DNA of 64,000 nucleotides, taken from Deltaproteobacteria bacterium (GTDB lineage: Bacteria; Myxococcota_A; Polyangia; Fen-1088). The notes beneath the pieces are model-generated. The model searched no databases. It saw only the letters and a list, made by a program, of their open reading frames with translations, and was not told the origin of the DNA. The DNA lies in NCBI GenBank assembly GCA_033763315.1, contig JANRKS010000008.1:1-64000 (forward strand), given 5' to 3'. Positions 39,115 through 63,715 of the stretch are shown piece by piece. Every line of letters starts with the position of its first letter. Position 1 is the stretch's first letter. Both the position numbers and the translations under genes were made by a program.

Positions 39115-40755
39115 GTGACCAGCCCGTTATTGCCCTTGGGTGCATGGACGCCCAGCACCGAAACGCCTTGTTTTGCGCCCGCTGAGCTTGTGCCCGCTGT
39201 GGCGCGCTTTCGCGAACCGCTGCACCTGATACGCGACGGCGCGCGTGGGCCTTTAGGGGTGGCGTTCGAGGGCAGTGTGAGTTTGGATGCACCCGTAGGT
39301 GGCGGATCTGGGCGGTACCCGTGGCTCGGCCGCTTGCCCGCCATCTATCCTGAATGGCTTGGCGATCGAGGCTTCTGCGAGACGCACAACCTTCGTTTTG
39401 CCTACATCGCGGGCGAGATGGCGAACGGCATCGCCACACCCGCCCTTGTGATCGCGATGGCACGCGCGGGCATGTTGGGTTTTTTCGGTGCGGGCGGTTT
39501 GCATCCACAACGCGTGGAGCAAGCGCTCAATGAGATCGAGGCGGCGCTCGGCCCCAGCAACGGTCACCCGGCGCCGTCGTGGGGCACCAATCTGATTCAT
39601 TCGCCAGCGGAACCTGCGATCGAAAACGCCGTGGCTGATCTCTACATCAGGCGCGGCGTCCGACGCGTTTGCGTATCGGCGTTCATGAATTTAACGCCAG
39701 CGGTGGCGCGTTTGGCGGCCAGCGGTCTTGTGCAAAACGAACAAGGGCGCGTTGAACGCAAACACCACATCTTCGCGAAGATCTCACGGCCCGAGGTGGC
39801 CACGGCATTCATGTCGCCCGCCCCGCTTTCCATGTTGGAAAGTCTCGTGCGCGCGGGGCAGATCACGCAGAACGAAGCACAATTGGCGCAACAGATCCCC
39901 GTGGCCGCTGAGATCACCGTTGAATCAGATTCCGGCGGGCACACGGACAACAGACCGCTGGGCTCGCTCCTGCCCGTGATCACAGCGCTGCGCGATGAAA
40001 TGATGAAGCGCCACGATTTCAAATACGCCATTCGCGTCGGCGCCGCGGGCGGATTGGGAACACCCGAAGCCGTGGCGGCGGCCTTCGCGATGGGTGCCGC
40101 CTACGTTGTGACTGGTTCTATCAACCAAAGTACCGTCGAAGCGGGCCTGAGCGCCGAGGGTAAGGCTTTGCTGGCACAGGCGGGGTTGGCGGACGTGATC
40201 ATGGCGCCAGCCGCCGATATGTTCGAGCTTGGCGTGAAGGTGCAGGTGCTCAAGCGTGGCTCGCTGTTCGGACCGCGCGCTTTGCGCTTGTATGAAGTGT
40301 TTCGCAGCTACGAGAGCTTAGAAGCCATTCCAGCGGCCGTGCGCGAGAAGCTTGAACGTGAAGTTTTGGGCCTTACCTGCGACGCCATCTGGAACGAAGT
40401 GCAGACATTCTTTGCAGAGAGAGATCCGCAAGAGATCGCGCGCGCGCAAGCCGACGGCAAGCATAAGATGGCGCTGGTCTTCCGGTGGTACCTTGGCCTT
40501 TCGAGCCGATGGGCGATCGCCGGAGAGCCAAGCCGGCGCGCCGACTATCAGATCTGGTGCGGGCCCGCGATGGGCGCGTTCAACGGTTGGGTCAAAGGCA
40601 CGTTTTTGGAGGCACCAGAAAAACGCAACGTCACCCAGCTGGCGTGGAATCTGATGGAGGGCGCGGCCGCCGTCACGCGCGCCCAGCAGTTGCGCAGCGC
40701 AGGCGTTCCCGTTCCCACAGAGGCTTTTCACTTCGCGCCGCGGCAGCTTGGGTGA
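39115..40755 (+). CDS. pfaD: PUFA synthase enoyl reductase (PfaD / myxobacterial Pfa1)
   Basis: GEMANGIA, AKISRPEVA, ESDSGGHTD, MAPAADMFELG, YQIWCGPAMGAFN. Confidence 0.95.
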   Translation: MTSPLLPLGAWTPSTETPCFAPAELVPAVARFREPLHLIRDGARGPLGVAFEGSVSLDAPVGGGSGRYPWLGRLPAIYPEWLGDRGFCETHNLRFAYIAGEMANGIATPALVIAMARAGMLGFFGAGGLHPQRVEQALNEIEAALGPSNGHPAPSWGTNLIHSPAEPAIENAVADLYIRRGVRRVCVSAFMNLTPAVARLAASGLVQNEQGRVERKHHIFAKISRPEVATAFMSPAPLSMLESLVRAGQITQNEAQLAQQIPVAAEITVESDSGGHTDNRPLGSLLPVITALRDEMMKRHDFKYAIRVGAAGGLGTPEAVAAAFAMGAAYVVTGSINQSTVEAGLSAEGKALLAQAGLADVIMAPAADMFELGVKVQVLKRGSLFGPRALRLYEVFRSYESLEAIPAAVREKLEREVLGLTCDAIWNEVQTFFAERDPQEIARAQADGKHKMALVFRWYLGLSSRWAIAGEPSRRADYQIWCGPAMGAFNGWVKGTFLEAPEKRNVTQLAWNLMEGAAAVTRAQQLRSAGVPVPTEAFHFAPRQLG

Positions 40756-41344: not shown

Positions 41345-41518
41345 CCAACGTCGCGTGCCGCTGGCGAGCTCGGTGCGGGAACCACATGTGGGCTCACCGG
41401 CAAGGTCGCTTTTGCTGGGAGCGAAACCCTCGCCGATGTAGGATTGGACAATGTGGTCGGGCCGCGTCACCGATGCGACGCTGTGGGAGCCACCCATGAA
41501 CACTTCGGACAGCAGTAG

Positions 41519-44655: not shown

Positions 44656-44700
44656 CTGCGAGCGAAAGCGTCGGCCGTCGCGGCTTGCTAAAGCACAGCC

Positions 44701-45090: not shown

Positions 45091-45171
45091 GGCCGCTGAC
45101 ATTTTCGAGCATGTAAACCAAGCGCACCAACATCGCTCTGCAAATCTGAAAAGGCCCGCTACAATGCGGCC

Positions 45172-46026: not shown

Positions 46027-46151
46027 GCTCTGAGGGTCTGGCAAGGTGTTGACGGCATCTTGTTTCCTCACTGGCGCTGTCTATACCCCAGAAGGGCTGT
46101 TCTCATAAAAGGCGCTTGGCAAACGTTGCCCGTTTCGCTTAAGTCGAGGGC

Positions 46152-47549
46152 GTGAAGCGCATCAATTCATCCGCAGGCCTTTCCCCGTTTTTCGTGAACC
46201 GACGGCGTTTTCTGCAAACCGCGCAGGCGGCGGCGGCTTTGGCAGCGTTGCCAGCCTGGGGGGCAGACGCGGTTGACTTGGTGAACGCCAAGGCCAAACG
46301 TGTGGGACTGATCGGCTGCGGATGGTACGGCAAAAGCGATCTGTGGCGGCTCATCCAGGTGGCGCCAGTGGATGTCGTCTCCTTGTGTGATCCCGACACC
46401 GATCTGTTGACTGGCGCTGCAGATCTGGCGGCCACGCGCCAAAGTTCTCACAAGCGGCCACGCACGTACCGCGACTACCGCGAGATGTTGCGGGAGAAGG
46501 ATCTCGACATCGTGATTGTGGGTTCGCCCGATCATTGGCATGCGTTGCACACGATCGCCGCGCTTGAAGCGGGCGCCGACGTTTACTGCCAAAAGCCTGT
46601 GAGCCGCGACGTGCGCGAAGGCGAAGCGATGGTGGATGCCGCCCGTAAACACAAACGCGTGATTCAGGTGGGCACGCAGCGCAAGAGCACGCCTCACCTT
46701 GTGGAAGCAAAGAAGCAAATCATCGAGGGCGGCAGGTTAGGAAAGATTGGTCACATTGAGATGTGCTGCTATTTCCCTATGCGCGCCAATGGCAACCCAC
46801 CGTTGCAGCCCGTTCCTCAAACGCTCGACTACGAACTGTGGACGGGCCCCGCACCGCTGCGGCCTTACGATGGTTCACCGCACGTGCGCTGGTGGCGCAC
46901 TTTCAAGGAATATGGCAACGGGATCCTCGGCGATATGTGCGTGCATCTTTTGGACACCGCGCGATGGATGTTGGGGCTCGGCTGGCCTCGGCGGATATCA
47001 TCGACGGGCGGGATCTTTGTTCAAAAGGGCGGCAAGTCGAACATTCCTGACACGCAAACAGCGACGTTCGAGTTCGATGACTTCAATGCCGTGTGGCAGC
47101 ACCGATCGTGGGGGCAAGCTGTGGATCCGGATTATCCGTGGGGCCTGTTTCTTCACGGTGAAAAGGGTTTGTTGAAAGCAAGCACCACGCGGGCTGACTT
47201 CATTCCTTACGACAAAAAGGAAAAGCCAATTCACTTCGACTGCGTCTACGAAAAAGAGAAATATCCGGAAGACATCACGGAGAAAGACATCGAACTTAAC
47301 GCCGCGCCCGCGACGCGTGCGCACATGCTGGACTTCTTGGCCGCCGTGGCCACCCGCGGTCGGCCGCTGGCTGACATCGAACAGGGCCACATCTCGACCG
47401 CCGCGTGCATTTTGGCAAACATCGCCATGGACGTGGGGCGCCCCGTGGCCTACGACCCCAAACTGCGGATCGTGACCGCCGATCGCGAAGCCACAAACCT
47501 GTTGCGACGCCCCTACCGCAAGGGGTGGAAGCACCCGCATCAGGGTTGA
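46152..47549 (+). CDS. Tat-exported Gfo/Idh/MocA oxidoreductase
   Basis: NRRRFL, GLIGCGWYG, PDHWH, QKP, GDMCVH. Confidence 0.9.
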   Translation: MKRINSSAGLSPFFVNRRRFLQTAQAAAALAALPAWGADAVDLVNAKAKRVGLIGCGWYGKSDLWRLIQVAPVDVVSLCDPDTDLLTGAADLAATRQSSHKRPRTYRDYREMLREKDLDIVIVGSPDHWHALHTIAALEAGADVYCQKPVSRDVREGEAMVDAARKHKRVIQVGTQRKSTPHLVEAKKQIIEGGRLGKIGHIEMCCYFPMRANGNPPLQPVPQTLDYELWTGPAPLRPYDGSPHVRWWRTFKEYGNGILGDMCVHLLDTARWMLGLGWPRRISSTGGIFVQKGGKSNIPDTQTATFEFDDFNAVWQHRSWGQAVDPDYPWGLFLHGEKGLLKASTTRADFIPYDKKEKPIHFDCVYEKEKYPEDITEKDIELNAAPATRAHMLDFLAAVATRGRPLADIEQGHISTAACILANIAMDVGRPVAYDPKLRIVTADREATNLLRRPYRKGWKHPHQG

Positions 47550-47661
47550 TGAGGCAGCAAGGCAGGGTTGCGTTGGTGGGCCACCCCGCCCCAAAAGACT
47601 TGGGCGTCGCACCCGAATAAATGAGGGTCGATGCCTGCATTGGCGGCGGTAGAGTTGGCCG

Positions 47662-50600: not shown

Positions 50601-50913
50601 GCTGCAAGTGCCGCGAAGCTCAGCGTTGACTCTAGACCTGGGCCACGTACACGATGTGGCACGTGTGCGGCTGAACGGCAGCGAAGTGGCCACGCTGTGG
50701 AACCAGACCGGTGTGGATGTGACGAACTTCGTGCACGCCGGCCGCAATGAGCTTGAAATTATTGTGAGCGTAGGTTGGCCGAACCGCTTGATTGGCGATG
50801 CCGCTTTGCCACCCACCCAGCGAAAGACCTGGACCACGTTCAACCCCTACACAGCAACATCCCCCTTGAGGGAGGCAGGGTTGCTCGGGCCTGTGCGACT
50901 TATCCCTCGGTGA
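47662..50913 (+). CDS. GH106-family glycoside hydrolase (alpha-L-rhamnosidase-like), exported
   Basis: Signal peptide; WWHWTNGN, GWSESGGPW, DSWEA, PMGEFW, GAEAF, GLLGPV. Confidence 0.88.
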   Translation: MKARALVAPLLALIVACAAAYAAPADPLLAGFLQPPPQARPLVWWHWTNGNVTQAAITADLEAMQRVGIGGVQLFDVDVGNPLLVPTPVDYMTPRWLQLLAFTARECKRLGLSLSVHSSAGWSESGGPWVRPADGMRKLVWSETQVTGPTTFTGTLPSPPRVFGPYGNLAREKMGTPAERWPAEVPEDYTDEYVLAYPTPAGRRFPGASGTLSGNVPNFDPKVVTDGDLNTRLKLPFTDAHTPVMVDVHFDDPFVAQALSLAAGWIAPLGELQSSQDGKTFTKVIDLPRPSVGSRPIPKTVTFTPVKAKHFRLVFLPRTSKLSFEFAELQLFEAPRVHRFEDKAGFGLLPDVDIERGAPAVGVDPKRVVDLTKRFKQGKGVWQVPAGSWTLVRVGHAATGMKNRPATAAGLGLEVDKLNAQAVRRYISTFLSRLQGAGVFAAGSMNGVLMDSWEAEHQNWTPGFMSAFRKRRGYDPLPFLPAMTGAVIVNAEASDRFLWDVRRTIADELSNNHYGVVRRAVAARGLRLEAEAVGQGMPMIADQLQARGRTDVPMGEFWVPAPGAPLQAKADCKEAASAAHIYGKQLVGAEAFSSGPDVPAWSQTPRSLKAVGDLHFATGINRLSLHQFTLQPDDTRKPGLTLKEYGSPFNRLNTWWDASGAWFTYLSRAQFLLQQGWFVGDVVYLYGEGAPATVADKADLVPAMPPGRDYDFVNTEALLNHARMLDGVLNFPGARGFRILVMPPSQVATPALLLKLRGFVRQGLTVVGPRPLRSPSLRGDAEVKALAAELWGPCEQAACEHKVGRGRVITGATLEAVLQQQSSPADIALAGETQPDAVATIHRQTKTDHIYFLANLTEFKQILKITLRAQGSTLQMWNAETGAHTSIPFHVDGATIRTDVALKPLESVFLLVRQGKGDQAAGEMAQGAALEVAGPWDVEFTSPFAQEASHHETFARLQSLSKHANPLVHHFAGNATYRAQLQVPRSSALTLDLGHVHDVARVRLNGSEVATLWNQTGVDVTNFVHAGRNELEIIVSVGWPNRLIGDAALPPTQRKTWTTFNPYTATSPLREAGLLGPVRLIPR

Positions 50914-51148
50914 TGCTAATTCGCATTTGTTCGGCTCGCACCCGAATCACGCCCCCACGCAGCTCTTGCTGCCTTGCACCTGCACGCTTGCCCTATCACC
51001 TGGGCAGGTGAGCCGACCGATAAGACGATTCGGCGGCAGCCACATTCCCCCACGCCGGGGCACTTAAGACGCCAAGCGTCAGATAAAGCCACCGTCCCAC
51101 GAACCTGAAAAGCCAGCGAAGTGGGGTTTCGTTGGCCGCTGCGTCCCC

Positions 51149-51171
51149 TATACTGCGACGTTCCCAAGGAG
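51149..51171 (+). promoter_or_regulatory. Putative -10 box and RBS of pfa2
   Basis: TATACT 51149-51154; AAGGAG 51166-51171, 8 nt before the in-frame CTG at 51180. Confidence 0.55.
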
Positions 51172-51179
51172 ACGTCCCC

Positions 51180-54100
51180 CTGCCCGTCGACAACCAGAAA
51201 TCCTTCCCGCCCAGTCTGGGTGAAGCGCCCATTGCCGTTGTGGGAGTGTCGGCCTTGTTCCCGGGCTCCGTGAACAAGGAGGGGTTTTGGCGCGACATCT
51301 TGGCCGGTAAGGATCTGCTGACCGATGTGCCCGCCACCCACTGGTTGATCGACGACTATTACGACGCCGATCCAAAGGCCCGTGACAAAACCTACGCGCG
51401 GCGCGGGGCGTTTTTGCCAGAGGTGGATTTTGATCCCGTGGCGTGGGGCCTGCCACCCACGTTGCTGCCCAACACAGACACAACGCAATTGCTGGCGCTG
51501 ATCGTGGCGCAACAGGTTCTTGAAGACGCGTGTGGCACGCAATTTAAAACCGTGAACCGCGAACGCATCAGCGTGATCTTGGGCGTGACGTCCGCACAAG
51601 AGCTGCTGGGCAACATGGTCAGCCGGCTGCAAAAGCCGGTGTGGGTCAAAGCCCTGCGCGAGATGGGTTTGCCGGAAAGCAAAGTGCAGGACGCCTGCGA
51701 TCGCATCGCGTCTCACTACGTTGAATGGAAAGAAAGCACCTTTCCCGGTGTTTTAGGCAACGTGGTTGCGGGGCGCATCGCCAACCGCCTGAACTTGGGC
51801 GGCACGAACTGCGTGACAGACGCCGCCTGTGCCAGCAGCTTGTCGGCGTTGTCGATGGCTGTGTCTGAACTGCGCCTTGGTCAATCAGACATGGTGATCA
51901 CCGGCGGCGCCGACACCATGAACGACATCTTCATGTACATCTGCTTCTCGAAGACACCTGCGCTTTCACCCACGGGTGATTGCCGGCCGTTTTCGGATCA
52001 AGCCGATGGCACGATGTTGGGCGAAGGCTTGGGCATGTTGGCGCTCAAACGTTTGGCCGACGCTGAACGTGATGGCGATCGCATTTATGCGCTGATCAAA
52101 GGCATCGGCACGTCTTCGGATGGCCGTTCCAAGAGCGTGTACGCGCCGGTGGCCGCGGGACAAGCGGTGGCGTTGCGACGCGCTTATGAAGAGGCGGGTT
52201 ATAGCCCAAGCACCGTGCAGTTGGTGGAGGCGCATGGCACCGGCACGCGCGCGGGCGATGCCGCTGAATTTGAAGGGCTTCGCACTGTATTCGATGAGGC
52301 CGGCCGCGGCGACAAAGCTTGGTGCGCGCTGGGATCGGTGAAATCACAGGTGGGCCACACGAAAGCCGCCGCGGGCGCGGCCGGCTTGTTCAAAGCTGTA
52401 ATGGCGCTTCACCACAAAGTGCTGCCACCCACAATCAAAGTGGACCGGCCCGACCCGAAATTAAACATCGAGCAAAGCCCGTTTTATCTAAACACGGTGG
52501 CGCGGCCATGGGTACGCAGCGGCGCGCATCCGCGTCGTGCGTCGGTCAGTTCGTTTGGGTTTGGCGGGTCCAACTTTCACGTGGCGTTGGAAGAATACAC
52601 AGGCCCCGCAACGGCGGCGCGCTTGCTGCCTGATGTGGGGCACGTGGTTTTGCTGTCGGGCACACAGGCGGAATTGGCCGCACGCTGCGCCGCTTTGGCC
52701 GCGCAGTTCGATGAAGCACCGGCCGGCGTGTTGGCTTTCGTGGCGTGGGATTCACAACGCACGTTCGAGCCCAAAGCCACGGCGCGCTTAAGTGTGTTTG
52801 CCGCGAGCGAAGCCGATGCGGCGGCGAAGTTCAAACAAGCCGAGGCCATCGTGAAGACGGGACACGATCTGGTCTCGCCTGCAGGCATCGAATTCTGTGC
52901 AACACCTGCCAGCGGTAGCCTGGCGTTCTTATTTCCCGGTCAAGGCAGCCAATATCTTGGCATGGCCGCGGACACTGTGATGGGCGTTCCGTCGGCGATG
53001 CAGGCGTGGGAGCAAGCGTGCGGCGACGCTGGATCGTGGGGCGCGGCTTTGGCCGAGGTCACGTACCCGCAGCCGGTGTTCGATGATGAACAACGGCAAG
53101 CGCAAGCGCTGCGGTTGACCGCCACCGAATGGGCACAGCCCGCGATCGGCGCCACGAGCTTGGCGTTGTTGAAAATCTTGCGCGCGTTGCAAGTCGAGCC
53201 TGCGTACGTGGCGGGCCACAGCTTCGGTGAAGTCACGGCGTTGCATGCGGCCGGCGTGTTTGGCGCGGCCGACGTCATGCACATTGCACGCAAGCGGGGC
53301 GAGTTGATGGCCGCGGCGTCGGCCACACCGGGCGCGATGCTTGGCGTGGCAACAGCCTTGGTCGATGTGCAACAGCATCTGCGCGACGCTGGTCACGTTG
53401 GGCCCGACGCACGCGTCGTGGTGGCAAACCACAACACACCTAAACAAGTTGTGTTGTCGGGGCACACAGGCGACATCGAAGCGATGGAGGCGCGTCTTAA
53501 AGCTGCCGGCGTCAACGTCACACGTTTGAATGTGTCCACGGCATTTCACTCGCCCTTGGTGGCAGGTGCCGCCGTGCCGCTGCAAGCGTTCTTGCAAGAC
53601 GTGCACATCGGCCCTCCAGTTATGCCCGTGTTTGCAAACACCACGGCTGGCCATTACCCAACCGACAAAAACGCGATCCGTGAGTTGTTGGCAAACCAAG
53701 TGGCCAACCCCGTGCGCTTCGTGGAACAGATCGAAGCCATGTACGCGGCCGGCGTGCGCACCTTTGTGGAAGTGGGCCCGGGCCATGTGTTGACGGCGCT
53801 CGTGGGCCACATCTTGAAGGACCGCCCGCACCGCGCCGTCGCTTTGGATCGCAAAGGACGCAATGGCCTCAGCACCTTGTTGCAAGGCCTTGGCGCGTTG
53901 GCCTTGGCAGGAAACGCGATTGATTTTTCCGCCTGGTGGCAGCCGTTTGCGCAACCCACCGATCCCCGTTTGCAGACCAAACCTGCACTGACCCTAAAAG
54001 TGGGCGGTGCCAGTTTCGGAAAGCCTTATCCCCCTGCTGGAGGAGCAGCCGCTTTGCCTAAGCCCAATGAAGAGAGCCCCGTTTCACAACCGTTGACCCC

Positions 54101-57100
54101 CGCGGCCGCGCCGGCGCCTGTGGCACCAGCGCCCGCAGCCATGCCCGTGATGGATGCAAGCGTGCAGTACGCGTGGGTTATGGCGATCACCGAAAGCCAA
54201 CGCCAAACGGCGGAGGCCCACGCAGCGTTCGCGCGCGCCATGGCCGAAACGCACGCGGCATTCTTGCGGTCGGCCGAAGCATCGCTGATGGGGCTCAACG
54301 CCGCTTTGGGTGGCAACGCCGTGGCGCCGTCGTTCGCGCCGCCAGCACCTGTGTTTGCAGCACCGCCAGCACCTGTGTTTGCAGCGCCGCCAGCTCCTGT
54401 GTTTGCAGCGCAGCCAGCTCCTGCACCTGTGTTGGCAGCGCCCTCAGCACCTGCGTTTGCGGCACCGCCAGCACCTGCACCGATGTTCACAGCGCCGCCC
54501 ACACCTAGTGTTGTGCCTGCGCCGCCCACGCCGGCGCCATCACAAAGCACACCGGCAGGGCTATCGCTTGAAAGCTTGCAAGCGTTGATGCTGCAAGTGG
54601 TGGCTTCGCGCACCGGATACCCCGAGGAGATGTTGGGCCTCGGTATGGATCTTGAAGCCGACTTGGGCGTGGATTCGATCAAGCGCGTTGAAATCCTTTC
54701 CGCCGTGATGGAACGCGCGCCGGGGTTGCCTGAGGTGAACACGGCAAAGATGGCGTCGATGCGGACGTTGGCCGAGATCGTCGCTTATCTTGCCAAAGAA
54801 GGCGGCTTGGGCGCCAACGGCACCAGCGAACATCACAAGGCCAACGGAAAACCGAACGGCAAAGCGAGTGAATCGAATGGCGCCGTGGAGGGCGTCCCCC
54901 GCCCTTTAGTTGAAAGCCCTGGGGTCACCACCCTAGGGCGCCAAGCTTTGCGCGCGGTTGTGTCACCGGCTTTGGGGTTAGCCACGGCAGGCGTGCTCGA
55001 CGGACGCGTGATCATCACCGATGACGGACAAGGCGTGGCCTTTGCTTTGGCCGAACGATTGCGGAACCGGGGCGCGCAAGTGCAGGTGTGCTTGGCCACA
55101 GCCGTGCCGTCAGATGCCAACGTGCTGATCGCGCTCGACGGCTTGCGCGGCTTCAGCAGTCCCGCGGGCGCAGACGCGATCAACCGTGAATCATTCATCG
55201 CGGCGCGCTCGGTGGCCGCTGCCTTCGAGAAAAACGGTGGCACATTCATCACTGTGCAAGACACGGGTGGCGACTTTGGCCTTTCGGGTTCGCACCGCGC
55301 GTGGGTGGCAGGCATCTCCGCGTTGGCACGCACGGCCGCCATCGAGTGGCCTCAAGCCACCGTGCGCGCCTTGGATGTGGAACGCGACGAGCGCACCGCA
55401 GAACAGATCGCCGATGCGATTGCCAATGAACTTATGGCGGGTGGCCCCGAGCTTGAAATAGGTTTACGCGCCGATGGCACGCGTGTGCGCCTGGCGTTGG
55501 AGGCTTCTGCTTTAACCTTGGGCGCCAACACCAAGGTGGATCGTGCGCAAACGTCTTTCGTGGTTGCCACGGGCGGTGCGCGTGGCGTGACCGCTGCGTG
55601 TTTGCGGGCGCTGGCCGAAGCCGCGCCAGGGCGCTTCTTGTTGCTGGGGCGCACGGCTTTGCAACCTGAACCCGCCGCATGCGCGGGGGCGCAGAGCGAC
55701 GCCGAACTGAAACGGGCTTTGTTGATGGAAGCGCGCGCACAGGGCGCCACATTGACGCCGGCGGCGTTGGGCCGGCAAACGTCGGCGGTGTTGGCCAACC
55801 GCGAGGTGAACGCCACGCTGGCCGCATTGAACGCCGCAGGAAGTGAAGCCGCGTATGAAGCCGTGGACGTCACCGACGCGGCGGCCGTGGCCGCAACCAT
55901 CGATCGTTATCGCGCACGTTGGGGCGCGGTATCAGGCGTGGTGCATGGCGCGGGCGTACTCGCCGATAAGTTGATTGCACAGAAGACCGACGAACAATAC
56001 ACGTTGGTGACCCGCACAAAGGTGCACGGGCTGAGGGCATTGCTGCAAGCCACCGCACAAGACGCTTTGCGCTTCTTGTGTTTGTTCTCTTCGGTGGCGG
56101 CGCGCTCAGGGAACCTGGGTCAGTGCGATTACGCAATGGCGAACGAGATCTTGAACAAGGTCGCGCACGAAGAGCAGCGGCGCCGCGGCCCCAGCTGCGT
56201 TGTGCGATCGCTCGGGTGGGGCCCGTGGGATGGCGGGATGGTGGACGACGGCCTGCGCGCGCGGTTCGCCGCCATGGGTGTGTCGTTGATTCCGGTACCT
56301 GCCGGGGCCCAAGCGATGTTGAACGAACTGGCTTTTGGCCCACAAGCCGCCACAGAAGTGGTGTTGGGTGCCACCAACGAAGACGACGGCGCCTCCCACA
56401 GTCTGGCCGGGCCCGACGCCGGCCACGAGCTTGAATGTGAAGTGCACGTCAACCACGAATCGCACGCGTATCTTGACGGCCATCGCATCAAGGGCGTTCC
56501 CGTGGTGCCGGTGGCGTTGGTCATCGATTGGTTCGCGCGCGCCGCACACGCTTTGCGCCCGGACTTGGTGTTGTCAGCGATCCGCAACGTGAAGGTGCTG
56601 CGAGGCGTGCGCCTGTTTGGGTTTGATCAAGGCGCAACGGAGCGCGTGGTGATCAAAGCGCGGCAGCTATCCAATGGCGGTCAAGCGACGCTGTCACTTG
56701 AGCTGCGTTCCACCGAAGGCGCCAAGCTTTACACCGCCACCGGCGAGATGCGAACGCACGCGTCCATCGCCACCCGCCCCGCGCCCGTTTTGGAGGCGTT
56801 GCAGTCGTCACCCCGCGTGGTGTATGGCCAGGCGCCGTTGTTTCACGGTCCCACCTTTCAAATGATCGACGCGTTGACCGGTATCGCGCCCGGCGGGTTG
56901 GCGGCAACCATCAACGGTGTGTTGGCTTTGTCGTGGCACGAAGCGGGCGCGCACAGGCCGTGGCGCACGGATCCCGCGGCGGTGGATGCGGCGCTGCAGT
57001 TGGCGCTGTTGTGGACGCATCATAAAGTGGGTGGCGTTTCGCTGCCCACGGGGCTCGAAGCCCTGTTGATTCACAAGACGGGCCCTTGGATTGGCCGTGT

Positions 57101-57266
57101 GCACGCCACGCTGCAAACGCGGCATCCGCAAGGCGAACACAAAGATCGCTGCGTGGTGGATGTTGTGTTCGTCAACGATCTGGGTGACGTCTTAGGCGAA
57201 GCTTTAGGCATCGAGACGCACGTCATCGCCAGCGGCGAGCCGGTGCCTGCGGCAGTCGTGGTTTAA
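51180..57266 (+). CDS. pfa2: PUFA synthase subunit PfaA/Pfa2 (KS-MAT-ACP-KR-DH)
   Basis: KS DAACASS/HGTGT/GHTK; AT GHSFG/AFHS; one ACP LGVDSIKR; KR GGARGVT/YAMAN; DH HxxxGxxxxP/DAALQ. Start CTG 51180 inferred (ORF open from 51132). Confidence 0.92.
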   Translation: MPVDNQKSFPPSLGEAPIAVVGVSALFPGSVNKEGFWRDILAGKDLLTDVPATHWLIDDYYDADPKARDKTYARRGAFLPEVDFDPVAWGLPPTLLPNTDTTQLLALIVAQQVLEDACGTQFKTVNRERISVILGVTSAQELLGNMVSRLQKPVWVKALREMGLPESKVQDACDRIASHYVEWKESTFPGVLGNVVAGRIANRLNLGGTNCVTDAACASSLSALSMAVSELRLGQSDMVITGGADTMNDIFMYICFSKTPALSPTGDCRPFSDQADGTMLGEGLGMLALKRLADAERDGDRIYALIKGIGTSSDGRSKSVYAPVAAGQAVALRRAYEEAGYSPSTVQLVEAHGTGTRAGDAAEFEGLRTVFDEAGRGDKAWCALGSVKSQVGHTKAAAGAAGLFKAVMALHHKVLPPTIKVDRPDPKLNIEQSPFYLNTVARPWVRSGAHPRRASVSSFGFGGSNFHVALEEYTGPATAARLLPDVGHVVLLSGTQAELAARCAALAAQFDEAPAGVLAFVAWDSQRTFEPKATARLSVFAASEADAAAKFKQAEAIVKTGHDLVSPAGIEFCATPASGSLAFLFPGQGSQYLGMAADTVMGVPSAMQAWEQACGDAGSWGAALAEVTYPQPVFDDEQRQAQALRLTATEWAQPAIGATSLALLKILRALQVEPAYVAGHSFGEVTALHAAGVFGAADVMHIARKRGELMAAASATPGAMLGVATALVDVQQHLRDAGHVGPDARVVVANHNTPKQVVLSGHTGDIEAMEARLKAAGVNVTRLNVSTAFHSPLVAGAAVPLQAFLQDVHIGPPVMPVFANTTAGHYPTDKNAIRELLANQVANPVRFVEQIEAMYAAGVRTFVEVGPGHVLTALVGHILKDRPHRAVALDRKGRNGLSTLLQGLGALALAGNAIDFSAWWQPFAQPTDPRLQTKPALTLKVGGASFGKPYPPAGGAAALPKPNEESPVSQPLTPAAAPAPVAPAPAAMPVMDASVQYAWVMAITESQRQTAEAHAAFARAMAETHAAFLRSAEASLMGLNAALGGNAVAPSFAPPAPVFAAPPAPVFAAPPAPVFAAQPAPAPVLAAPSAPAFAAPPAPAPMFTAPPTPSVVPAPPTPAPSQSTPAGLSLESLQALMLQVVASRTGYPEEMLGLGMDLEADLGVDSIKRVEILSAVMERAPGLPEVNTAKMASMRTLAEIVAYLAKEGGLGANGTSEHHKANGKPNGKASESNGAVEGVPRPLVESPGVTTLGRQALRAVVSPALGLATAGVLDGRVIITDDGQGVAFALAERLRNRGAQVQVCLATAVPSDANVLIALDGLRGFSSPAGADAINRESFIAARSVAAAFEKNGGTFITVQDTGGDFGLSGSHRAWVAGISALARTAAIEWPQATVRALDVERDERTAEQIADAIANELMAGGPELEIGLRADGTRVRLALEASALTLGANTKVDRAQTSFVVATGGARGVTAACLRALAEAAPGRFLLLGRTALQPEPAACAGAQSDAELKRALLMEARAQGATLTPAALGRQTSAVLANREVNATLAALNAAGSEAAYEAVDVTDAAAVAATIDRYRARWGAVSGVVHGAGVLADKLIAQKTDEQYTLVTRTKVHGLRALLQATAQDALRFLCLFSSVAARSGNLGQCDYAMANEILNKVAHEEQRRRGPSCVVRSLGWGPWDGGMVDDGLRARFAAMGVSLIPVPAGAQAMLNELAFGPQAATEVVLGATNEDDGASHSLAGPDAGHELECEVHVNHESHAYLDGHRIKGVPVVPVALVIDWFARAAHALRPDLVLSAIRNVKVLRGVRLFGFDQGATERVVIKARQLSNGGQATLSLELRSTEGAKLYTATGEMRTHASIATRPAPVLEALQSSPRVVYGQAPLFHGPTFQMIDALTGIAPGGLAATINGVLALSWHEAGAHRPWRTDPAAVDAALQLALLWTHHKVGGVSLPTGLEALLIHKTGPWIGRVHATLQTRHPQGEHKDRCVVDVVFVNDLGDVLGEALGIETHVIASGEPVPAAVVV
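54341..54412 (+). repeat. 24-bp coding tandem repeat (PAPVFAAP linker), degenerating to about 54500
   Basis: Three near-identical GCCAGC(A/T)CCTGTGTTTGCAGC(A/G)C(C/A) units. Confidence 0.9.
54887..54939 (+). other. Candidate programmed -1 ribosomal frameshift signal
   Basis: GGAGGG 54887-54892; in-frame C_CCT_TTA 54902-54908; 10-bp stem 54916-54939; -1 frame stop TGA 54911-54913. Confidence 0.6.
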
Positions 57267-57277
57267 GAGCCCCACGC

Positions 57278-60200
57278 ATGTCTGCTTCTTCCTTCTGTCC
57301 GATCGCGATTGTGGGGCGCGCTTGCGTTCTGCCGAACGCGCTGTCGCCGCAAGCCTTGTGGGATCTAGTGGTGCGCAACACCGTGGCCACCAGCCGCGCG
57401 CCTGCCGGTCGGTGGGGCATTGATTCCACATTGATGTTGGCCGGGCCTGGTGAGGCCACAGGCGATCGTGCACTCAACGACGTTGGTGGCTACGTGCACG
57501 GCTTCGAGCGCGTCTTTAATCCGCATGGCTTCGTGCTGCCGGGCGATTTCATCGCGGGGCTCGATCCTGTGTTCCAGTGGTTGCTGCACACCGGACGCGA
57601 AGCCTTGCGAGACGCCAAATGGGCGGGCAAGCGGTCGCGCGTCGGCGTCGCGGTGGGCAACCTTTCATATCCGTCACAAGCCTTGTCGCGCTTTGCTGAG
57701 CGCGTGTGGCTTGAAGGCCAACCTGATCCGCGCACCGGCAGCAACCACACCACCACCGGGTTGATGGATGTGCTTGGGCTGCCGCAAATCGATCCGCACA
57801 ACCGCTTCATGTCTGGTCTGCCCGCGCATTTGCTGGCGCAAGCTTTGGATCTGGGTGCGGGTGCGTTTGCGCTTGATGCCGCGTGTGCGTCTTCGCTTTA
57901 CGCGATCAAGGTGGCTTGTGATGCGCTGGCCGATGGCCGCGCCGATTTGATGTTGGCGGGAGCGGTGAACTGCGCCGATGACTTGTTCATTCATGCGGGC
58001 TTTACGGCCCTGTCGGCGTTGAGCCCCTCGGGCCGCACGCGACCCTTTCACGCCGAGGCCGATGGGCTTGTGCCCGCCGAAGGCGCAGCGATGGTGGCGT
58101 TGATGCGGCTCACAGACGCGCAAGCGCAAGGGGCGCCCATCTTGGGTGTCATTCGTGGCATTGGTCTGTCGAACGATGGCCGGGGGCGAGGCCTCTTGGT
58201 GCCTTCACAGCCTGGGCAAGTGCGTGCGCTCAAAGCCGCCTACGCCGGCGCAGGCTTATCGCCAGACGACGTGGGTTACGTGGAATGCCACGCCACCGGC
58301 ACCAGCGTGGGCGACGCCGTTGAACTGGGCACACTGCATGAGGTGTTCGGTGCACGTCGGCACAACCTTGTTGTGGGATCTCTGAAGGCCAACCTCGGGC
58401 ACCTCATCACAGCGGCCGGCGCGGCGGGTTTGATTAAAGTGTTGTCGGCGTTTGAGGCGAAGGCGAAGCCGCCGATGCCATCCCCCGATAAGCCAAGCGG
58501 TGCTTTGCAAAAGCTGCGCACGTTGCAGCAAGCGATACCGTGGCTTGACGAAGGGCGGCCGCGGCTCGCGGCTGTCAGCGCGTTTGGGTTTGGCGGCAAC
58601 AACGCGCACTTGGTTGTGGAAGAGGCCCCCCGCGCAGGGGCGCCGCTGTCGCGCGCCGTCCCCGCCGCCTTGCCGAAACGTGAGCGGATCGCCATCGTGG
58701 CGCTTGGCGCCCGCGTGGCCGATGGCACCAACGTGGCCGATTTCGCCGAGGCCTTGTTCACCGGCACGTCGCGTTTGAACCACGGCGTGGCCGCGGCGTA
58801 TGAAGTGGCCGTTTCACTGCAAGGGCTGCGGTTTCCTCCCAACGATCTGCAAGAGACCCTGCCACAACAATTGTTGGTGTTGGCGGCCGCACGCGAAGCG
58901 GTGGAGCAAGTGGCCGCGTTGCCTTCGCAAACCACAGGCGTGTTCGTGGGCATGCAATGCGACGCCGAAATCGCGCGCCACGGAGCGCGGTGGCACGCGG
59001 CGGCGTGGGGCCAAACCTTGGAGGCCCCCTCCGGTTGGGTCGATAAAGCGCGAGACGCGTTTGTGCCCTTGCTTGGCGCGGCGGGTGTGCTGGGCGCCAT
59101 GCCGAACATTCCAGCCAACCGCTTGAGCAGCCAACTGGATCTTCAGGGCCCCAGTTTCACAGTTTCGTCCGAAGAGCTCTCTGGTGTGCGTGCGTTGGCC
59201 TTGGCCGAACGCGCGCTGCAAGCCGGTGAGATCGATGCGGCACTTGTAGCCGCAGTGGATTTGTGTGCGGAGCCCGTGCACATGGCGGCCGCGAAAGTGC
59301 TGTCTGCGAAACGACGTACCGGAGGCGACGCGGCCATCGTGATGGTGTGCAAGCGCGAGTCCGATGCGGTGGCCGATGGCGATCGCATTGTGGCGTTCGT
59401 CCAAACACAGATCGCGGCGCCGTTTTCCGATGAGGATGACGCCCGCGAACCAGATGAAGCCGACCTGCTGATGGGCGATGGCCAGGGTGCAACCAGCTTG
59501 CACACGTTGTTTGGCCACCCGCACGCGGCTGTGGGCCTGTTGCATGTGGCCGCCGCGAGCTTGTGCTGTGAACATGGGCACCTGCCAGGCGTTGAAGGTG
59601 ATCGGCTGCAGGCGCCCCGCGTTTGGAGATCATCATCAAAGCCACGGGTCGCGTCCGTGTTCGTCACGGCGTTGGGCGAGCAGGCCTGCAGCGTGCAGAT
59701 CACCAGCGCCAACTCGTCCGAACTCCCACTAAGTGAAGTGATGCGCAAGCTGCGCGCTGGGGCCTACCAACCAGCCCCGCCCGTGTTGGCGTTCCCGGCC
59801 CACCGGCCGCGCCCGCGTTTGCCACAATTGTTGGAACCACAAACCATTTTGGCGCCCGTCCAAAAGCCGCAGCTGCAGGACGCGTTCGCACCCACGGCTG
59901 CGTCGGCCGAAAGTCACGTCACCACAGTGATGCCACTGCCTCCGTGGCTTCCCCCCGCGGGGGACCTGATCGTTGGCGAGCTCAACACCACGCCCGCACA
60001 AGCGCCGCGTTTTGCCCCCTTTGCACAGATTCCCGCTGTGTCTGCGCCAGCAGTTAGGCCTCGCTCTCCTGCCCCATCGTCACAGGCCCTGGCTTACCGC
60101 AACCATGTGGCCCAGCTTCATCAAAGCTTTATCGCCACGGCCACCGCAACGCACACGCAATTTCTAGAACTGCGGCAAAAGGCATTTGCCGTGTTGCTGC

Positions 60201-63200
60201 GCGGCCCGGGCGGCACCGCAGTTGCGTTGCCGACGTGGCAGCCCCCGCCACCTCAAGACGTCGTAACCGCGCCTGCCATCGTTGCCCCCACCTCATTGTT
60301 GTCGCCTCCGCGCGGCCCTGCATTTTCACGCGCAGAACTCGAAGTCCACGCTTCGGGGCGCATCAGTGATCTATTCGGCGAAGGTTTCGCCGGCCAAGAT
60401 CAATACGCCATCCAAGTGCGCATGCCCGAGCCCCCGTTGTTGCTGGCGGATCGCGTGGTGGGCATCGACGCTGTGCCCGGCAGCATGGGGCTTGGCACCG
60501 TGTGGACGGAAACGGACGTTCGCGAAGACAGCTGGTTTTTGAACCGAGGCTTTATGCCTGCGGGCATCATGATCGAGGCAGGCCAGGCGGATCTGTTCTT
60601 GATCTCGTATCTGGGCATCGACGCGCACAACAAAGGCGAACGCGCTTACCGCCTGTTGGGTTGCGAGCTCACATACCACGGCGGCCTGCCAAAGCCGGGC
60701 GATACCTTGCGGTATGAAATCCACGTCGACGCGCATGCACGTCAGGGCGACGTGCGGCTGTTCTTCTTTCACTACGATTGTGTGGTGGGTGATCGCCGCG
60801 CCCTCACCGTTCGTCAGGGCCAAGCGGGCTTCTTCAGCAAAGACGAACTTGATCATTCAGCCGGCGTGCTATGGCGCCCGGAGACGCAAGATATTGTCGC
60901 GTCGCCGCGCTTGGATCCACCCGCGGTCAATTGCACGCACAGCGCCTTCACAGCAGAGCAGATGCGTGCCTTCGCTGCAGGCGATGCGTTTGCGTGCTTT
61001 GGCTCCGGTTACGAACTGGCCCAAACACACACGCGATCGCCAGCGGTTCAACAAGGCGAGATGCTGTTGGTGGATCACATCGCCGCGTTCGAGCCCACCG
61101 GCGGCCCTTGGGGTCGCGGCTATCTCAAAGCCGTTACGCCGATCTCGGCCAATGATTGGTTCTTCAAAGGCCACTTCAAAAACGATCCGTGCATGCCTGG
61201 CACTTTAATGTACGAAGGCTGCTTGCAGGCGATGGCCTTTTACCTCGCGGCCTTGGGATACACGTTGGATCGGGACGGCTGGCGCTTTGAGCCCGTGCCC
61301 GAAGAAACGTTCAAGCTTCAATGCCGCGGGCAAGTGCTGCCAAGCTCCAAAGAGCTGGTGTGCGAATTGTTCGTGGAAGAAGTGATCGAAGGACCCACGC
61401 CCACCCTTTACGCGGATCTTCTGGGCACCGTGGATGGCCTCAAGGCGTTTCACGCGCGCCGCGTGGGTTTGCGCTTGGTGCCCGATTGGCCGTTGTCGAG
61501 CTGCAAGCTCGCGCCTGTGCCCCATACAAAACCCGTGGCCGAGGCGAACGGCTTCGCGTTTGATTATGCATCGCTGCTGGCGTGCGCGTGGGGCCGCCCT
61601 TCAGCTGCCTTTGGACCGATGTACAGCGTGTTCGACGGCATTCGCCGCGTGGCGCGTTTGCCGGGACCGCCCTATCACTTCATGAGCCGCGTGTCGCGCA
61701 TTGAGGGTGACATCGGCGTGTGCCAACCGGGGGCCACAATTGAAATCGAATACGATGTGCCACAGCACGCATGGTATTTCGAGCAGAACGGCGCACGCAC
61801 GATGCCGTTTTGCGTGTTGCTTGAAGCTGTCTTGCAACCATGCGGTTGGTTGGCCAGTTTTGTGGGCAGCGCACTTTTAGGCTCTGAAGATCTCAGCTTC
61901 CGCAATTTGGATGGCAGTGGGCAAGTGCTGGCAGAGGTTTTCCCCTCGTCGGGCACCTTACGAACCGTGACCACCATCAAGACCGTGTCGCGCTCGGGCG
62001 GTATGATCTTGGAAACCTTCGAGGTGCAGTGCTTCATCGGTGATACGCCGATCTACAAACTGCACACAGGCTTCGGCTTTTTTCCAAAAGCGGCGCTTGC
62101 CAACCAAGTGGGCCTCCCCACCACGCCCGTGCAGCGGGCGCAACTGGAAGCACCGGCGCCTTACTTTGTGGATCTTACGCAAAACCCCGCGCGCTTTTGC
62201 GACGGTTCACTGCGGCTGGCCGGCCCGATGTTGCTGATGATCGACCGTGTAACGGCCTATGATGCCAAAGGTGGTGCGGCGGGCATGGGCTTTGCGCGCG
62301 CCGAGAAAACCATCGATCCGTCAGAGTGGTTTTTCAAAGCCCACTTCTTCCAAGATCCGGTGCAACCGGGTTCGCTTGGCATCGAAGCGATGCTGCAGCT
62401 GCTTCAATTCACGATGATCGAGGACAACCTCGGCCACGGCATGCGGCAGCCGCGGTTCGTGCCGCTGGCGCTCGGCCACGACATGACGTGGAAATACCGC
62501 GGCCAAGTTGTGCCGACGAATAAGATCGTCACCACCACACTCGAGATCACCAAACGCACAGAGGACGAGCACGGCCGCCCGCTTGTGTTCGCCGAGGCTT
62601 CGCTGTGGGTGGATGGCAAGCGCATCTATCATGCCACCAGCCTGGGCATGAGCATTGTGGATGATGCGCCCACAGCGCTCCTTGCCGCTGAAACGAATGC
62701 CAGCACCGAGGTGTGGCAGGTGCAAACGCCGCAAGAGTTCTTGCCGCGCACGCGGGCGTTCTGGGGCCACCACTTAGGCACCCTGCCCGCCGCCGTTGAC
62801 GACATCTTCACAGCGCTTGTGCAACGCTTCGTTCATCGCTTGCACATAAAGGGCAGCGACACGCTGGCCACCTTGGCGCAAGCGCCGCATGGGGTGCTGT
62901 TCCTGGGCAACCACCAAACCACGGTGGAATCCACGCTGTTCGCGATCGTGGCCTCGGCTTTGGTGGGCTCACCCATTTTGACGTTGGCCAAAGCCGAGAA
63001 CGCCACGTTCTGGCTTGAGCTGCTGATGCAACATACGTTTGCTTATCCGGGCCTCGCGCGGTTGCCGATGGCCAAGCTGTTCAACCGCAGCGACAGCGCT
63101 TCGTTGCCAGGCATCATCGCCGAGATGGCCGAGGAAATGGTGAACACACGGCGAAGCATGATGGTGCATGTGGAAGGAACACGAGCCTTGCAAGCACGAT

Positions 63201-63715
63201 TGCCCGTGCGCGCGCTTAGCGGCACGTTCATCGATATGGCCCTCGGAGTGGGGTGCCCCGTGGTGCCCGTGCGCTTCGCTGGTGGGTTGCCACTTGAGTC
63301 ACTGACCGAGCGGCTTGAGTTCCCAATCGGTATGGGCCGCCACGAGATCTACATTGGTGAGCCGCTGCTGCCCGAGGTGCTGCGGCCTTTGCACTATGGG
63401 GCCCGCCGCCAACGCGTGTTGGACGCGCTCAATGCCTTGGGTCCACCGCTGCACGAAGAAGTGCCGCTGCCTGCCGAACCAGACTTTGAACGCACCGTTA
63501 CCGCTTTGGCCGAAGCCAACGGCACAAACGTGGGCCACGCGGTGTTCTTGCATCTGTTGCAATCACTGCAGCAGCCGTGCGCCGAGCTGCGGTCCTTGTG
63601 CAACGCCTCGCCCGGCATGAACCTCACGCTGCCACAATCGCCACAGGGCCGCTGGTTGGCCGAACTCGCGCGTCGCTTGTGGGGCCGCAACGCGCCTCAT
63701 TTGCACCTAAGTTAA
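57278..63715 (+). CDS. pfa3: PUFA synthase subunit Pfa3 (KS-CLF-FabA-like DH domains-AGPAT), no AT domain seen
   Basis: KS DAACASS/HATGT/GHL; CLF SSEELSG; DH GHFKNDPCMPG and AHFFQDPVQPG; acyltransferase NHQTTVES...VHVEGTR...PVVPV. Confidence 0.92.
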   Translation: MSASSFCPIAIVGRACVLPNALSPQALWDLVVRNTVATSRAPAGRWGIDSTLMLAGPGEATGDRALNDVGGYVHGFERVFNPHGFVLPGDFIAGLDPVFQWLLHTGREALRDAKWAGKRSRVGVAVGNLSYPSQALSRFAERVWLEGQPDPRTGSNHTTTGLMDVLGLPQIDPHNRFMSGLPAHLLAQALDLGAGAFALDAACASSLYAIKVACDALADGRADLMLAGAVNCADDLFIHAGFTALSALSPSGRTRPFHAEADGLVPAEGAAMVALMRLTDAQAQGAPILGVIRGIGLSNDGRGRGLLVPSQPGQVRALKAAYAGAGLSPDDVGYVECHATGTSVGDAVELGTLHEVFGARRHNLVVGSLKANLGHLITAAGAAGLIKVLSAFEAKAKPPMPSPDKPSGALQKLRTLQQAIPWLDEGRPRLAAVSAFGFGGNNAHLVVEEAPRAGAPLSRAVPAALPKRERIAIVALGARVADGTNVADFAEALFTGTSRLNHGVAAAYEVAVSLQGLRFPPNDLQETLPQQLLVLAAAREAVEQVAALPSQTTGVFVGMQCDAEIARHGARWHAAAWGQTLEAPSGWVDKARDAFVPLLGAAGVLGAMPNIPANRLSSQLDLQGPSFTVSSEELSGVRALALAERALQAGEIDAALVAAVDLCAEPVHMAAAKVLSAKRRTGGDAAIVMVCKRESDAVADGDRIVAFVQTQIAAPFSDEDDAREPDEADLLMGDGQGATSLHTLFGHPHAAVGLLHVAAASLCCEHGHLPGVEGDRLQAPRVWRSSSKPRVASVFVTALGEQACSVQITSANSSELPLSEVMRKLRAGAYQPAPPVLAFPAHRPRPRLPQLLEPQTILAPVQKPQLQDAFAPTAASAESHVTTVMPLPPWLPPAGDLIVGELNTTPAQAPRFAPFAQIPAVSAPAVRPRSPAPSSQALAYRNHVAQLHQSFIATATATHTQFLELRQKAFAVLLRGPGGTAVALPTWQPPPPQDVVTAPAIVAPTSLLSPPRGPAFSRAELEVHASGRISDLFGEGFAGQDQYAIQVRMPEPPLLLADRVVGIDAVPGSMGLGTVWTETDVREDSWFLNRGFMPAGIMIEAGQADLFLISYLGIDAHNKGERAYRLLGCELTYHGGLPKPGDTLRYEIHVDAHARQGDVRLFFFHYDCVVGDRRALTVRQGQAGFFSKDELDHSAGVLWRPETQDIVASPRLDPPAVNCTHSAFTAEQMRAFAAGDAFACFGSGYELAQTHTRSPAVQQGEMLLVDHIAAFEPTGGPWGRGYLKAVTPISANDWFFKGHFKNDPCMPGTLMYEGCLQAMAFYLAALGYTLDRDGWRFEPVPEETFKLQCRGQVLPSSKELVCELFVEEVIEGPTPTLYADLLGTVDGLKAFHARRVGLRLVPDWPLSSCKLAPVPHTKPVAEANGFAFDYASLLACAWGRPSAAFGPMYSVFDGIRRVARLPGPPYHFMSRVSRIEGDIGVCQPGATIEIEYDVPQHAWYFEQNGARTMPFCVLLEAVLQPCGWLASFVGSALLGSEDLSFRNLDGSGQVLAEVFPSSGTLRTVTTIKTVSRSGGMILETFEVQCFIGDTPIYKLHTGFGFFPKAALANQVGLPTTPVQRAQLEAPAPYFVDLTQNPARFCDGSLRLAGPMLLMIDRVTAYDAKGGAAGMGFARAEKTIDPSEWFFKAHFFQDPVQPGSLGIEAMLQLLQFTMIEDNLGHGMRQPRFVPLALGHDMTWKYRGQVVPTNKIVTTTLEITKRTEDEHGRPLVFAEASLWVDGKRIYHATSLGMSIVDDAPTALLAAETNASTEVWQVQTPQEFLPRTRAFWGHHLGTLPAAVDDIFTALVQRFVHRLHIKGSDTLATLAQAPHGVLFLGNHQTTVESTLFAIVASALVGSPILTLAKAENATFWLELLMQHTFAYPGLARLPMAKLFNRSDSASLPGIIAEMAEEMVNTRRSMMVHVEGTRALQARLPVRALSGTFIDMALGVGCPVVPVRFAGGLPLESLTERLEFPIGMGRHEIYIGEPLLPEVLRPLHYGARRQRVLDALNALGPPLHEEVPLPAEPDFERTVTALAEANGTNVGHAVFLHLLQSLQQPCAELRSLCNASPGMNLTLPQSPQGRWLAELARRLWGRNAPHLHLS

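Follow-up and report, generated by a model that had tools for sequence, protein, structure and literature searches.

A probable programmed −1 frameshift site between the ACP and KR domains of a myxobacterial PUFA-synthase-like gene

Can a gene of the polyunsaturated fatty acid (PUFA) synthase type encode two proteins, one long and one short, by having ribosomes change frame between domains? The question is raised by pfa2, a pfa2/pfaA-like gene on the first 64,000 nt of contig JANRKS010000008.1 (assembly GCA_033763315.1, Deltaproteobacteria bacterium), a stretch referred to throughout as the window. A sequence-only reading of the window had proposed that positions 54887–54939, just after the part encoding the ACP domain, form a complete −1 frameshift cassette, by which a KS-MAT-ACP isoform would be made beside the full KS-MAT-ACP-KR-DH protein. 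Comparison with related loci makes it likely (probability about 0.65) that this element is a real programmed −1 frameshift site of a myxobacterial Pfa2/PfaA-like clade, and an isoform-making one in the window. It is highly probable that the window's relatives use −1 frameshifting, and the Pfa2 family very probably uses it to obtain both a short and a long protein from a single gene. The comparisons support a recoding system that appears wider than had been supposed, being clade-level, present in both polarities and of several independent origins.

All parts of the cassette were confirmed where they had been placed: GGAGGG, an in-frame C_CCT_TTA, a 10-bp stem and a TGA in the −1 frame (Table 1). 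The location claimed for them, the ACP-KR linker, is borne out by the Pfam bounds of the PP-binding (residues 1154–1220) and KR (1478–1700) domains. In frame 0 the heptamer is read within CGC CCT TTA (R1257, P1258, L1259). The arms of the hairpin (54916–54925 and 54930–54939) make 10 bp, one G-U among them, and a spacer of 7 nt separates them from the heptamer. The predicted −1 product is a KS-MAT-ACP protein with the C-terminus ...GVPRPLS; its length, previously put at ~1245 aa, is corrected to ~1260 aa. TTA had been described as unusual for this DNA, and it is uncommon (19/552 Leu codons, 3.4%, across three open reading frames, ORFs) but not very rare, occurring ten times in pfa2. The window sequence by itself is suggestive and not beyond chance, because in-frame slippery heptamers are common there.

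Relatives with KR-DH in the −1 frame

A protein search with Pfa2 was made over 41 related genomes, and the junctions were then viewed in three frames. The Pfa2 match was broken at residue ~1260 in 3/41 genomes (G002, G014 and G001, with loci L004, L005 and L006, respectively). At all three loci KR-DH homology runs on in the −1 frame from C_CCT_TTA, and frame 0 ends 7 codons past the heptamer, exactly 22 nt from its start. This goes beyond the tests that had been suggested for the window; in three relatives this very heptamer is where the downstream domains pass into the −1 frame, so that the cassette would function in recoding within the family. Three other genomes (G017, G019 and G031) have an uninterrupted ORF, and CCCTTTA is absent from them. 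G002 and G014 have intact sequence for both halves of the gene (the protein search reported a ‘TAG’, but it lies upstream of the start), and in each C_CCT_TTA is the sole in-frame heptamer in the stretch where the two frames overlap. The G014 junction sequence recurs unchanged in three more metagenome contigs (L116–L118), and was also found in L034.

Independent initiation of KR-DH was considered as a means of reaching these domains, and is rejected for two loci, L005 and L097 (the latter from a Spirillospora isolate). There is no ATG, GTG or TTG in the KR (−1) frame from −200 to +114 in L005, or from −200 to +111 in L097, and the first possible starts, at +114 and +111, fall past the conserved N-terminal segment. 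For the other loci independent initiation is unlikely. In L046 and L062, from myxobacterial metagenome-assembled genomes (MAGs), −1-frame codons for the conserved LGRF/H.L motif already precede the 0-frame stop. Given KR-DH in the −1 frame, an early 0-frame stop and, in G014, the lack of a start codon, it would therefore appear that G002, G014 and G001 need a −1 shift for full-length Pfa2.

Conservation of the cassette and a survey of ACP-KR junctions

The string GGAGG-N8-CGCCCTTTAG is identical in 5/5 diverged lineages that carry CCCTTTA (the window, metagenome contig L111, L004, L005 and L006), in a linker that is otherwise variable among them. A codon alignment of the five, comprising 146 columns upstream of the site and the site itself, has the same residue in all lineages at 62/146 columns, yet the same codon at only 13 of these 62, five of which are ATG. 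Four of the eight invariant codons for residues other than Met belong to GAG...CGC CCT TTA, and three invariant codons in a row occur only at CGC CCT TTA. The G before GAG is invariant though the residue it helps encode varies (V, M, T, G and G in the five lineages), and GGAGG as a whole is kept despite varied flanking residues (V/M/T/G before, G/A after). Its end lies 10 nt from the heptamer in all five lineages, and likewise in L046 and L062. Two expectations of the sequence-only reading, that CCCTTT(A) and the upstream Shine-Dalgarno (SD)-like element should be conserved in homologues, are thus strongly upheld in 5/5 lineages, the former with its rare codons included and the latter even where amino acids differ. 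We infer that GGAGG acts as a stimulator. Among the lineages compared, what is conserved of the cassette is the SD-like element with the heptamer, and the hairpin would be lineage-specific at best.

ACP-KR junctions were sampled through KR alignment, blind to the motif, at 80 loci from species-representative genomes (mostly Myxococcota MAGs, with actinomycetes and Rhodocyclaceae MAGs) and 80 from metagenomes, which with L001–L007 gave 167 loci. Both ACP and KR parts are held by 162 of them, L051, L054, L081, L157 and L176 having no ACP part on the contig; other polyketide synthase matches (L008–L030) are excluded from every count. Junctions were in frame at 147/162 loci, in the −1 frame at 14 and in the +1 frame at one, corresponding to 133, 8 and 1 distinct junction sequences. 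A canonical heptamer stands on 7/8 distinct −1 junctions: C_CCT_TTA on three (L004, L005 and L006), C_CCA_AAA on three (L046, L062 and L097) and A_AAA_AAA on one (L158/L189). L046 and L062 share the GGAGG-N8-CG spacing with the CCCTTTA lineages. As at L004 and L005, no in-frame X_XXY_YYZ other than the heptamer occurs in the frame overlap of L046, L062, L097 and L158 (overlaps of 94–811 nt over these six loci); the exception is L006, whose overlap stretch of 4162 nt has further heptamers inside. The background for A/T-type heptamers was 109 in 211,266 codons. The single +1 junction, L108 (upstream of 2821), has a KR match that starts from query residue 67 and an ACP-like match 218 nt upstream, and may reflect a spurious ACP match or a long-read error.

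In a FastTree phylogeny of 152 distinct KR sequences every CCCTTTA row fell in one clade (support 99), which is a polytomy as to the direction of evolution. L046 and L062 fell in a different clade, L097 among actinomycetes, and the A_AAA_AAA rows and L173 elsewhere; in all, the heptamer-bearing −1 junctions are spread over four or more separate positions of the tree. An IQ-TREE analysis of 20 rows chosen out of the 152 (six clade members, the other 14 being neighbours or outgroups) gave support of 100/98 for the CCCTTTA clade and 100/99 for the window with L111, and only 76/57 for the −1 rows together. Both polarities persist over long branches of the KR trees with the cassette intact.

A second cassette was found in an in-frame clade (L144, L145, L152 and L169) that is separate from the CCCTTTA clade and well supported in the FastTree phylogeny. 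It lies in the same ACP-KR linker, ~50 nt farther upstream than that of the window, and consists of GGAG(G)-N7-A_AAA_AAA-N6 followed by a hairpin of 11–12 bp with one compensatory A-U to G-C change; the −1 stop comes 9 codons on, within the hairpin loop. Judged from its layout, this is an independent, dnaX-like truncating arrangement, written in other letters but seemingly of the same logic as the window's. A further in-frame heptamer, G_GGA_AAA, occurs in the linker of G019 (L003/L036), ~32 nt before the start of the KR match and with a −1 stop 6 codons on; G019, a single lineage, is sister of the CCCTTTA clade (90/86).

Reversed polarity in the window and the competing explanations

The closest relative of the window is L111 (73% identity in KR), in which KR is likewise in frame. 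L111 carries GGAGG-N8-CGCCCTTTAG, AGN TGA in the −1 frame, with the TGA at the same place as in the window, and a hairpin at the matching place. Overall the two share 69.5% nt identity, and same-residue codons are identical at 370/794 positions (46.6%), whereas in the cassette, from E to L, 6/6 same-residue codons are identical (0.466^6 = 0.010). A net difference of 2 nt separates L111 from L004 right after the heptamer (AGC-T-GAAGG vs AGC-ACA-GAAGG), a difference that turns one polarity into the other. The proposal that the window encodes full-length Pfa2 together with a KS-MAT-ACP isoform ending ...PRPLS gains comparative support from the six identical codons and the shared −1 TGA (P ~0.01). 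The window probably does still make a meaningful short isoform, would presumably shift at a useful rate, and the short isoform is presumably useful to the cell.

The hairpin of the window ranks 7 of 2031 among 39-nt segments across pfa2, and its fold is equalled by 0.47% of 3000 synonymous recodings; an 81-nt fold at the cassette has z = −2.58 (shuffle mean −32.7 kcal/mol). A covarying stem had been anticipated in homologues, and this was weakly borne out: window and L111 share the stem with one compensatory pair (T54920-A54935), in a partly shifted register, but it is absent from the −1 relatives. An Rfam scan of 54500–55300 returned three chance-level matches, all far under gathering scores, and no family was assigned. 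Contigs over the cassette from three public runs (X1–X3, one of which may be the window's own source sample) show no indel: X1 is identical to the window over 54768–54918, X2, from a 96%-identical strain, has 18 substitutions over 54600–55060 and none within 54852–54940 (zero changes over 89 nt), and X3 has 2 substitutions over 54792–54942. An assembly slip at the cassette is ruled out by these contigs. Among the public runs listed as covering the site, none is of RNA.

A number of observations weigh against a working frameshift site in the window, and most of them would fit a relic, in which the clade shifts but an indel has fused KR-DH into frame 0, leaving the window with an inert or nearly inert leftover. 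No domain of the window requires the shift, full-length Pfa2 being made independently of it, and the cassette could thus be inherited baggage. The truncating polarity is limited to two sister lineages, the window and L111, and the signal of continued selection in the window comes from these two (P ~0.01) and the one 96%-identical strain; by the trees either polarity could be ancestral. The L111 hairpin is matched by 13% of synonymous recodings, which is not significant, the −1 relatives L004, L005 and L006 have non-homologous local structures in place of the hairpin, and part of its stability stems from the encoded peptide P-G...L-G. The heptamer is also modest in E. coli, where, in the portion of Sharma et al. 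(2014, PMC4066793) consulted, U_UUA is weak as an A-site motif (the tetramer reaches 1.8- to 3.6-fold over background) and C_CC.U_UU.A lies outside the top shift class, these being E. coli and not Myxococcota data. The same text has C_CC.U_UU.A and C_CC.A_AA.A as under-represented in E. coli genes and as giving >0.10% shifting without stimulators. A relic is nevertheless unlikely: at 30% nt divergence the window and L111 keep the six cassette codons, GGAGG and the −1 TGA, the window hairpin beats 99.5% of synonymous recodings, and the truncating layout has also evolved in a separate clade of in-frame loci, with another heptamer and a covarying hairpin. It is improbable, moreover, that the element merely slows the ribosome for co-translational folding at the ACP-KR boundary and gives no useful shifted product. 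SD-like sequences, uncommon codons and hairpins can slow ribosomes, all three parts of the cassette are of this kind, and the element sits exactly in an inter-domain linker; however, an X_XXY_YYZ heptamer and a conserved −1 stop are superfluous for pausing, and the same element marks a true frame change in relatives.

Very improbable is an absence of recoding anywhere, with the −1 junctions of relatives being split pfaA genes, pseudogenes or assembly errors and the cassette of the window a coincidence. A split of pfaA at this boundary is known (Shulse and Allen, 2011, PMC3098273, in the part seen), GTG or TTG codons are present downstream in L004, L006, L046 and L062, and G001 (L006) has more frame breaks elsewhere in the gene, making it a weak witness. 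One −1 junction, L173, is without a canonical heptamer (TTGGGGGAATAA at the 0-frame stop, L173:530–560). Frame breaks also occur in the Pro/Ala-rich MAT-ACP linker of G001, G073, G076 and G078, from a family-wide search of 89 genomes (16 with an orthologue), and are not rare in such assemblies. Set against this, L005 and L097 have no start codon before +114 and +111, L046 and L062 encode conserved residues in the −1 frame before frame 0 has stopped, the L005 junction is identical across independent assemblies (L116–L118) with both gene halves intact, and the shift at the ACP-KR junction is −1 in eight distinct sequences, seven of them with a canonical heptamer, while the MAT-ACP breaks go mostly the opposite way (four +1 and one −1). 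Pure chance, by which heptamer, GGAGG and hairpin would co-occur in the window without meaning, is hardly credible; 23 in-frame X_XXY_YYZ heptamers do occur in the ~5270 codons of the three large window ORFs, and GC-rich DNA folds readily, but exact conservation in five lineages and coincidence with frame transitions contradict it.

The MAT-ACP breaks were considered as extra recoding sites and rejected, their directions being mixed: the one −1 break (G076) is at an NN gap, that of G078 is a 1-nt insertion, and those of G001 and G073 are +1 shifts. None of the three viewed in three frames (G001, G076 and G078) has a slippery site at the break. Errors of assembly or of long reads in repetitive sequence are their probable cause. 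An additional break in G001 lies near residue 1734. The L173 contig is 2.1 kb long and 41% identical.

Mechanism, precedents and genomic setting

If the cassette works as a frameshift site, the ribosome would stand with its P site on CCU and its A site on UUA, an uncommon codon, and would be kept there by GGAGG, 10 nt upstream, pairing with the tail of its 16S rRNA. The window's 10-bp hairpin, 7 nt downstream, probably contributes, and the uncommon codon may help. Some ribosomes would then slip one base back, the tRNAs on CCU and UUA re-pairing to CCC and UUU. In G002, G014 and G001 only the slipped ribosomes would reach KR-DH and make full-length protein, frame 0 giving KS-MAT-ACP with a 7-residue tail; in the window and L111 normal decoding would give the full-length protein, with KR-DH in frame 0, and slipped ribosomes would read AGU and stop at UGA, yielding a KS-MAT-ACP isoform of ~1260 aa with one Ser added. 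In either polarity the shift rate would set the ratio of short to long protein. Whether −1 shifting at the ACP-KR junction serves generally as a stoichiometry dial, with at least four origins (on C_CCU_UUA, C_CCA_AAA and A_AAA_AAA) in Myxococcota and an actinomycete and with both polarities in sister lineages, is an evenly balanced matter on the present comparisons. Were it such a dial, a polarity flip of 2 nt would survive only with a large shift share or a need for both forms together.

The Pfa2 cassette would extend a known mechanism to a gene family new to it. To our knowledge the cellular bacterial genes with −1 frameshifting are few: dnaX, copA, csoS2 and a handful more. In E. coli dnaX, A_AAA_AAG with an SD-like sequence ~10 nt upstream, a downstream stem-loop and a near-immediate −1 stop gives the truncated isoform of the tau/gamma pair. 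The heptamer, SD spacing, stem-loop and quick −1 stop match the layout of the window and of L144/L169, but the heptamer is A_AAA_AAG rather than C_CCU_UUA and the product is a clamp-loader subunit of an unrelated family. Sister lineages of the window, unlike dnaX, would require the shift for the long form, and we know of no dnaX in this reverse polarity. In E. coli copA and carboxysomal csoS2, a −1 shift on a heptamer of the C_CCA_AAG type gives a shorter isoform. These too are cellular bacterial genes, of other protein families, and the C_CCA_AAA of L046, L062 and L097 is near-identical to their heptamer. The arrangement in G002, G014, G001, L046, L062 and L097 resembles the orfA-orfB −1 frameshift described for IS3/IS911-type elements (Sharma et al., 2014, PMC4066793, in the portion consulted): the downstream part is read in the −1 frame, frame 0 stops shortly past the heptamer, only shifted ribosomes make the trans-frame fusion, and SD-like and stem-loop stimulators are present. 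There, however, the product is the transposase of a mobile element, not a biosynthetic megasynthase, and the usual heptamers are A_AAA_AAG/A.

The same domain boundary is cut in another way in Type D and H secondary-lipid clusters, in which pfaA is split into pfaA1 (KS-AT-ACP) and pfaA2 (KR) (Shulse and Allen, 2011, PMC3098273, in the part seen), the genomes with a split pfaA named there including Saccharopolyspora erythraea, Agrobacterium vitis S4 and Psychroflexus torquis; by analogy, these split genes suggest that a free KS-AT-ACP polypeptide is workable. Two genes are involved there, whereas pfa2 is a single ORF in the window and the second part in L005 and L097 is without its own start; a second gene with its own start and ribosome-binding site, as in a split pfaA, was not found. 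Term searches of PMC8436480, PMC3098273 and bioRxiv 10.1101/2025.10.02.679949, as far as those texts were covered, gave no description of frameshifting. The only related entry in the covered part of Antonov (2013, PMC3711429) is a +1 ‘polyketide cyclase’ table row, and the first 300,000 characters of Atkins (2016, PMC5009743) describe no such recoding. The claim that recoding in PUFA synthases is new holds as far as a full-text literature search reaches, in which no description was found for PUFA or polyketide synthases and the papers listed on frameshifting at CCCTTTA dealt with viral or human topics, supplements and subscription journals lying outside its coverage.

If the reading is right, the domain composition of a polyketide or fatty-acid megasynthase would for the first time be known to be set by recoding, and the gene sequence of a PUFA or polyketide synthase would not show all the proteins made: a KS-MAT-ACP isoform would accompany the full-length subunit, or the latter would be obtained only through recoding. 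It would bear on the tuning of carrier-domain dosage. A new frameshift family would also offer a well-replicated natural experiment, spanning both polarities and three types of heptamer. In annotation these genes are likely to be labelled pseudogenes or split genes; in heterologous pfa expression the signal would be lost on codon optimisation, and the subunit ratio would change with an in-frame fusion.

By its architecture pfa2 is a Pfa2/PfaA-like subunit of a PUFA-synthase-like (secondary lipid) system. Its product counts 2044 aa from the first TTG, the true start being uncertain, and has Pfam matches to KS (residues 32–437), AT (599–901), PP-binding (1154–1220), KR (1478–1700) and PS-DH (1900–2035). 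Myxobacterial Pfa2 has the order KS-MAT-ACP-KR-DH, Pfa3 a C-terminal AGPAT-like acyltransferase, and Pfa1 is an enoyl reductase (ER) (Pal et al., 2021, PMC8436480, in the part consulted). The window shares the Pfa2 domain order, a Pfa3-like acyltransferase and a Pfa1-type ER, and so has the domain order and both partners of PUFA-synthase-like systems; it differs in the single ACP detected and in the ER, which is not adjacent but 10 kb away. The tandem ACPs of PfaA are lacking, Pfam finding one PP-binding stretch in Pfa2, although the top matches of residues 1140–1330 in a protein database search are multi-ACP PfaA proteins. A Pro/Ala-rich tandem repeat (...PAPVFAAPPAPVFAAPPAPVFAAQPAP...; window ~54350–54540) lies between MAT and the single ACP of Pfa2, and is a linker of the type usual between tandem ACPs.

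Table 1. Features of the window and of related loci
Feature	Position	Strand	Remarks
pfa1/pfaD-like enoyl reductase (NMO + FabD helical insert)	39115..40755	+	~10 kb upstream of pfa2
DUF1592/1588/1595/1587/1585 gene	41519-43204		Between ER and pfa2
DUF1552 gene	43201-44655		Between ER and pfa2
GFO/IDH/MocA oxidoreductase	46152-47549		Between ER and pfa2
GH106 alpha-L-rhamnosidase	47662-50913		Between ER and pfa2
pfa2/pfaA-like gene	51132..57266	+	ORF list, translation; Pfam KS-MAT-ACP-KR-DH
ACP (PP-binding), single, residues 1154-1220	54591..54791	+	Pfam PF00550
Internal SD-like GGAGG(G)	54887..54892	+	GGAGG end 10 nt before heptamer
Slippery heptamer C_CCT_TTA	54902..54908	+	In frame, P1258 L1259
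−1-frame TGA stop	54911..54913	+	−1 reading CCC TTT AGT TGA
Hairpin GCCCTGGGGT / ACCCTAGGGC, loop CACC	54916..54939	+	Candidate downstream stimulator
KR domain, residues 1478-1700	55563..56231	+	Pfam; frame 0 in window, −1 frame in G002/G014/G001
pfa3/pfaC-like gene (KS, FabA-type DH repeats, C-terminal acyltransferase)	57278..63715	+	Pfam
Second truncating cassette	L144:1415-1505, L145:1068-1158, L152:1415-1505, L169:1409-1499		ACP-KR linker
MAT-ACP breaks	L006:1330-1690 (G001), L194:2560-2860 (G076), L195 (G073), L197:2700-3000 (G078)		

Genes unrelated to PUFA synthesis fill the interval from the Pfa1-like ER to pfa2 (window 39115–50913; Table 1). Across the three ORFs at 47662–63715, in DNA of 61% G+C, TTG is the commonest Leu codon (242/552, 44%) and AAA is slightly more frequent than AAG for Lys, a codon usage that is unusual for a GC-rich myxobacterial MAG.

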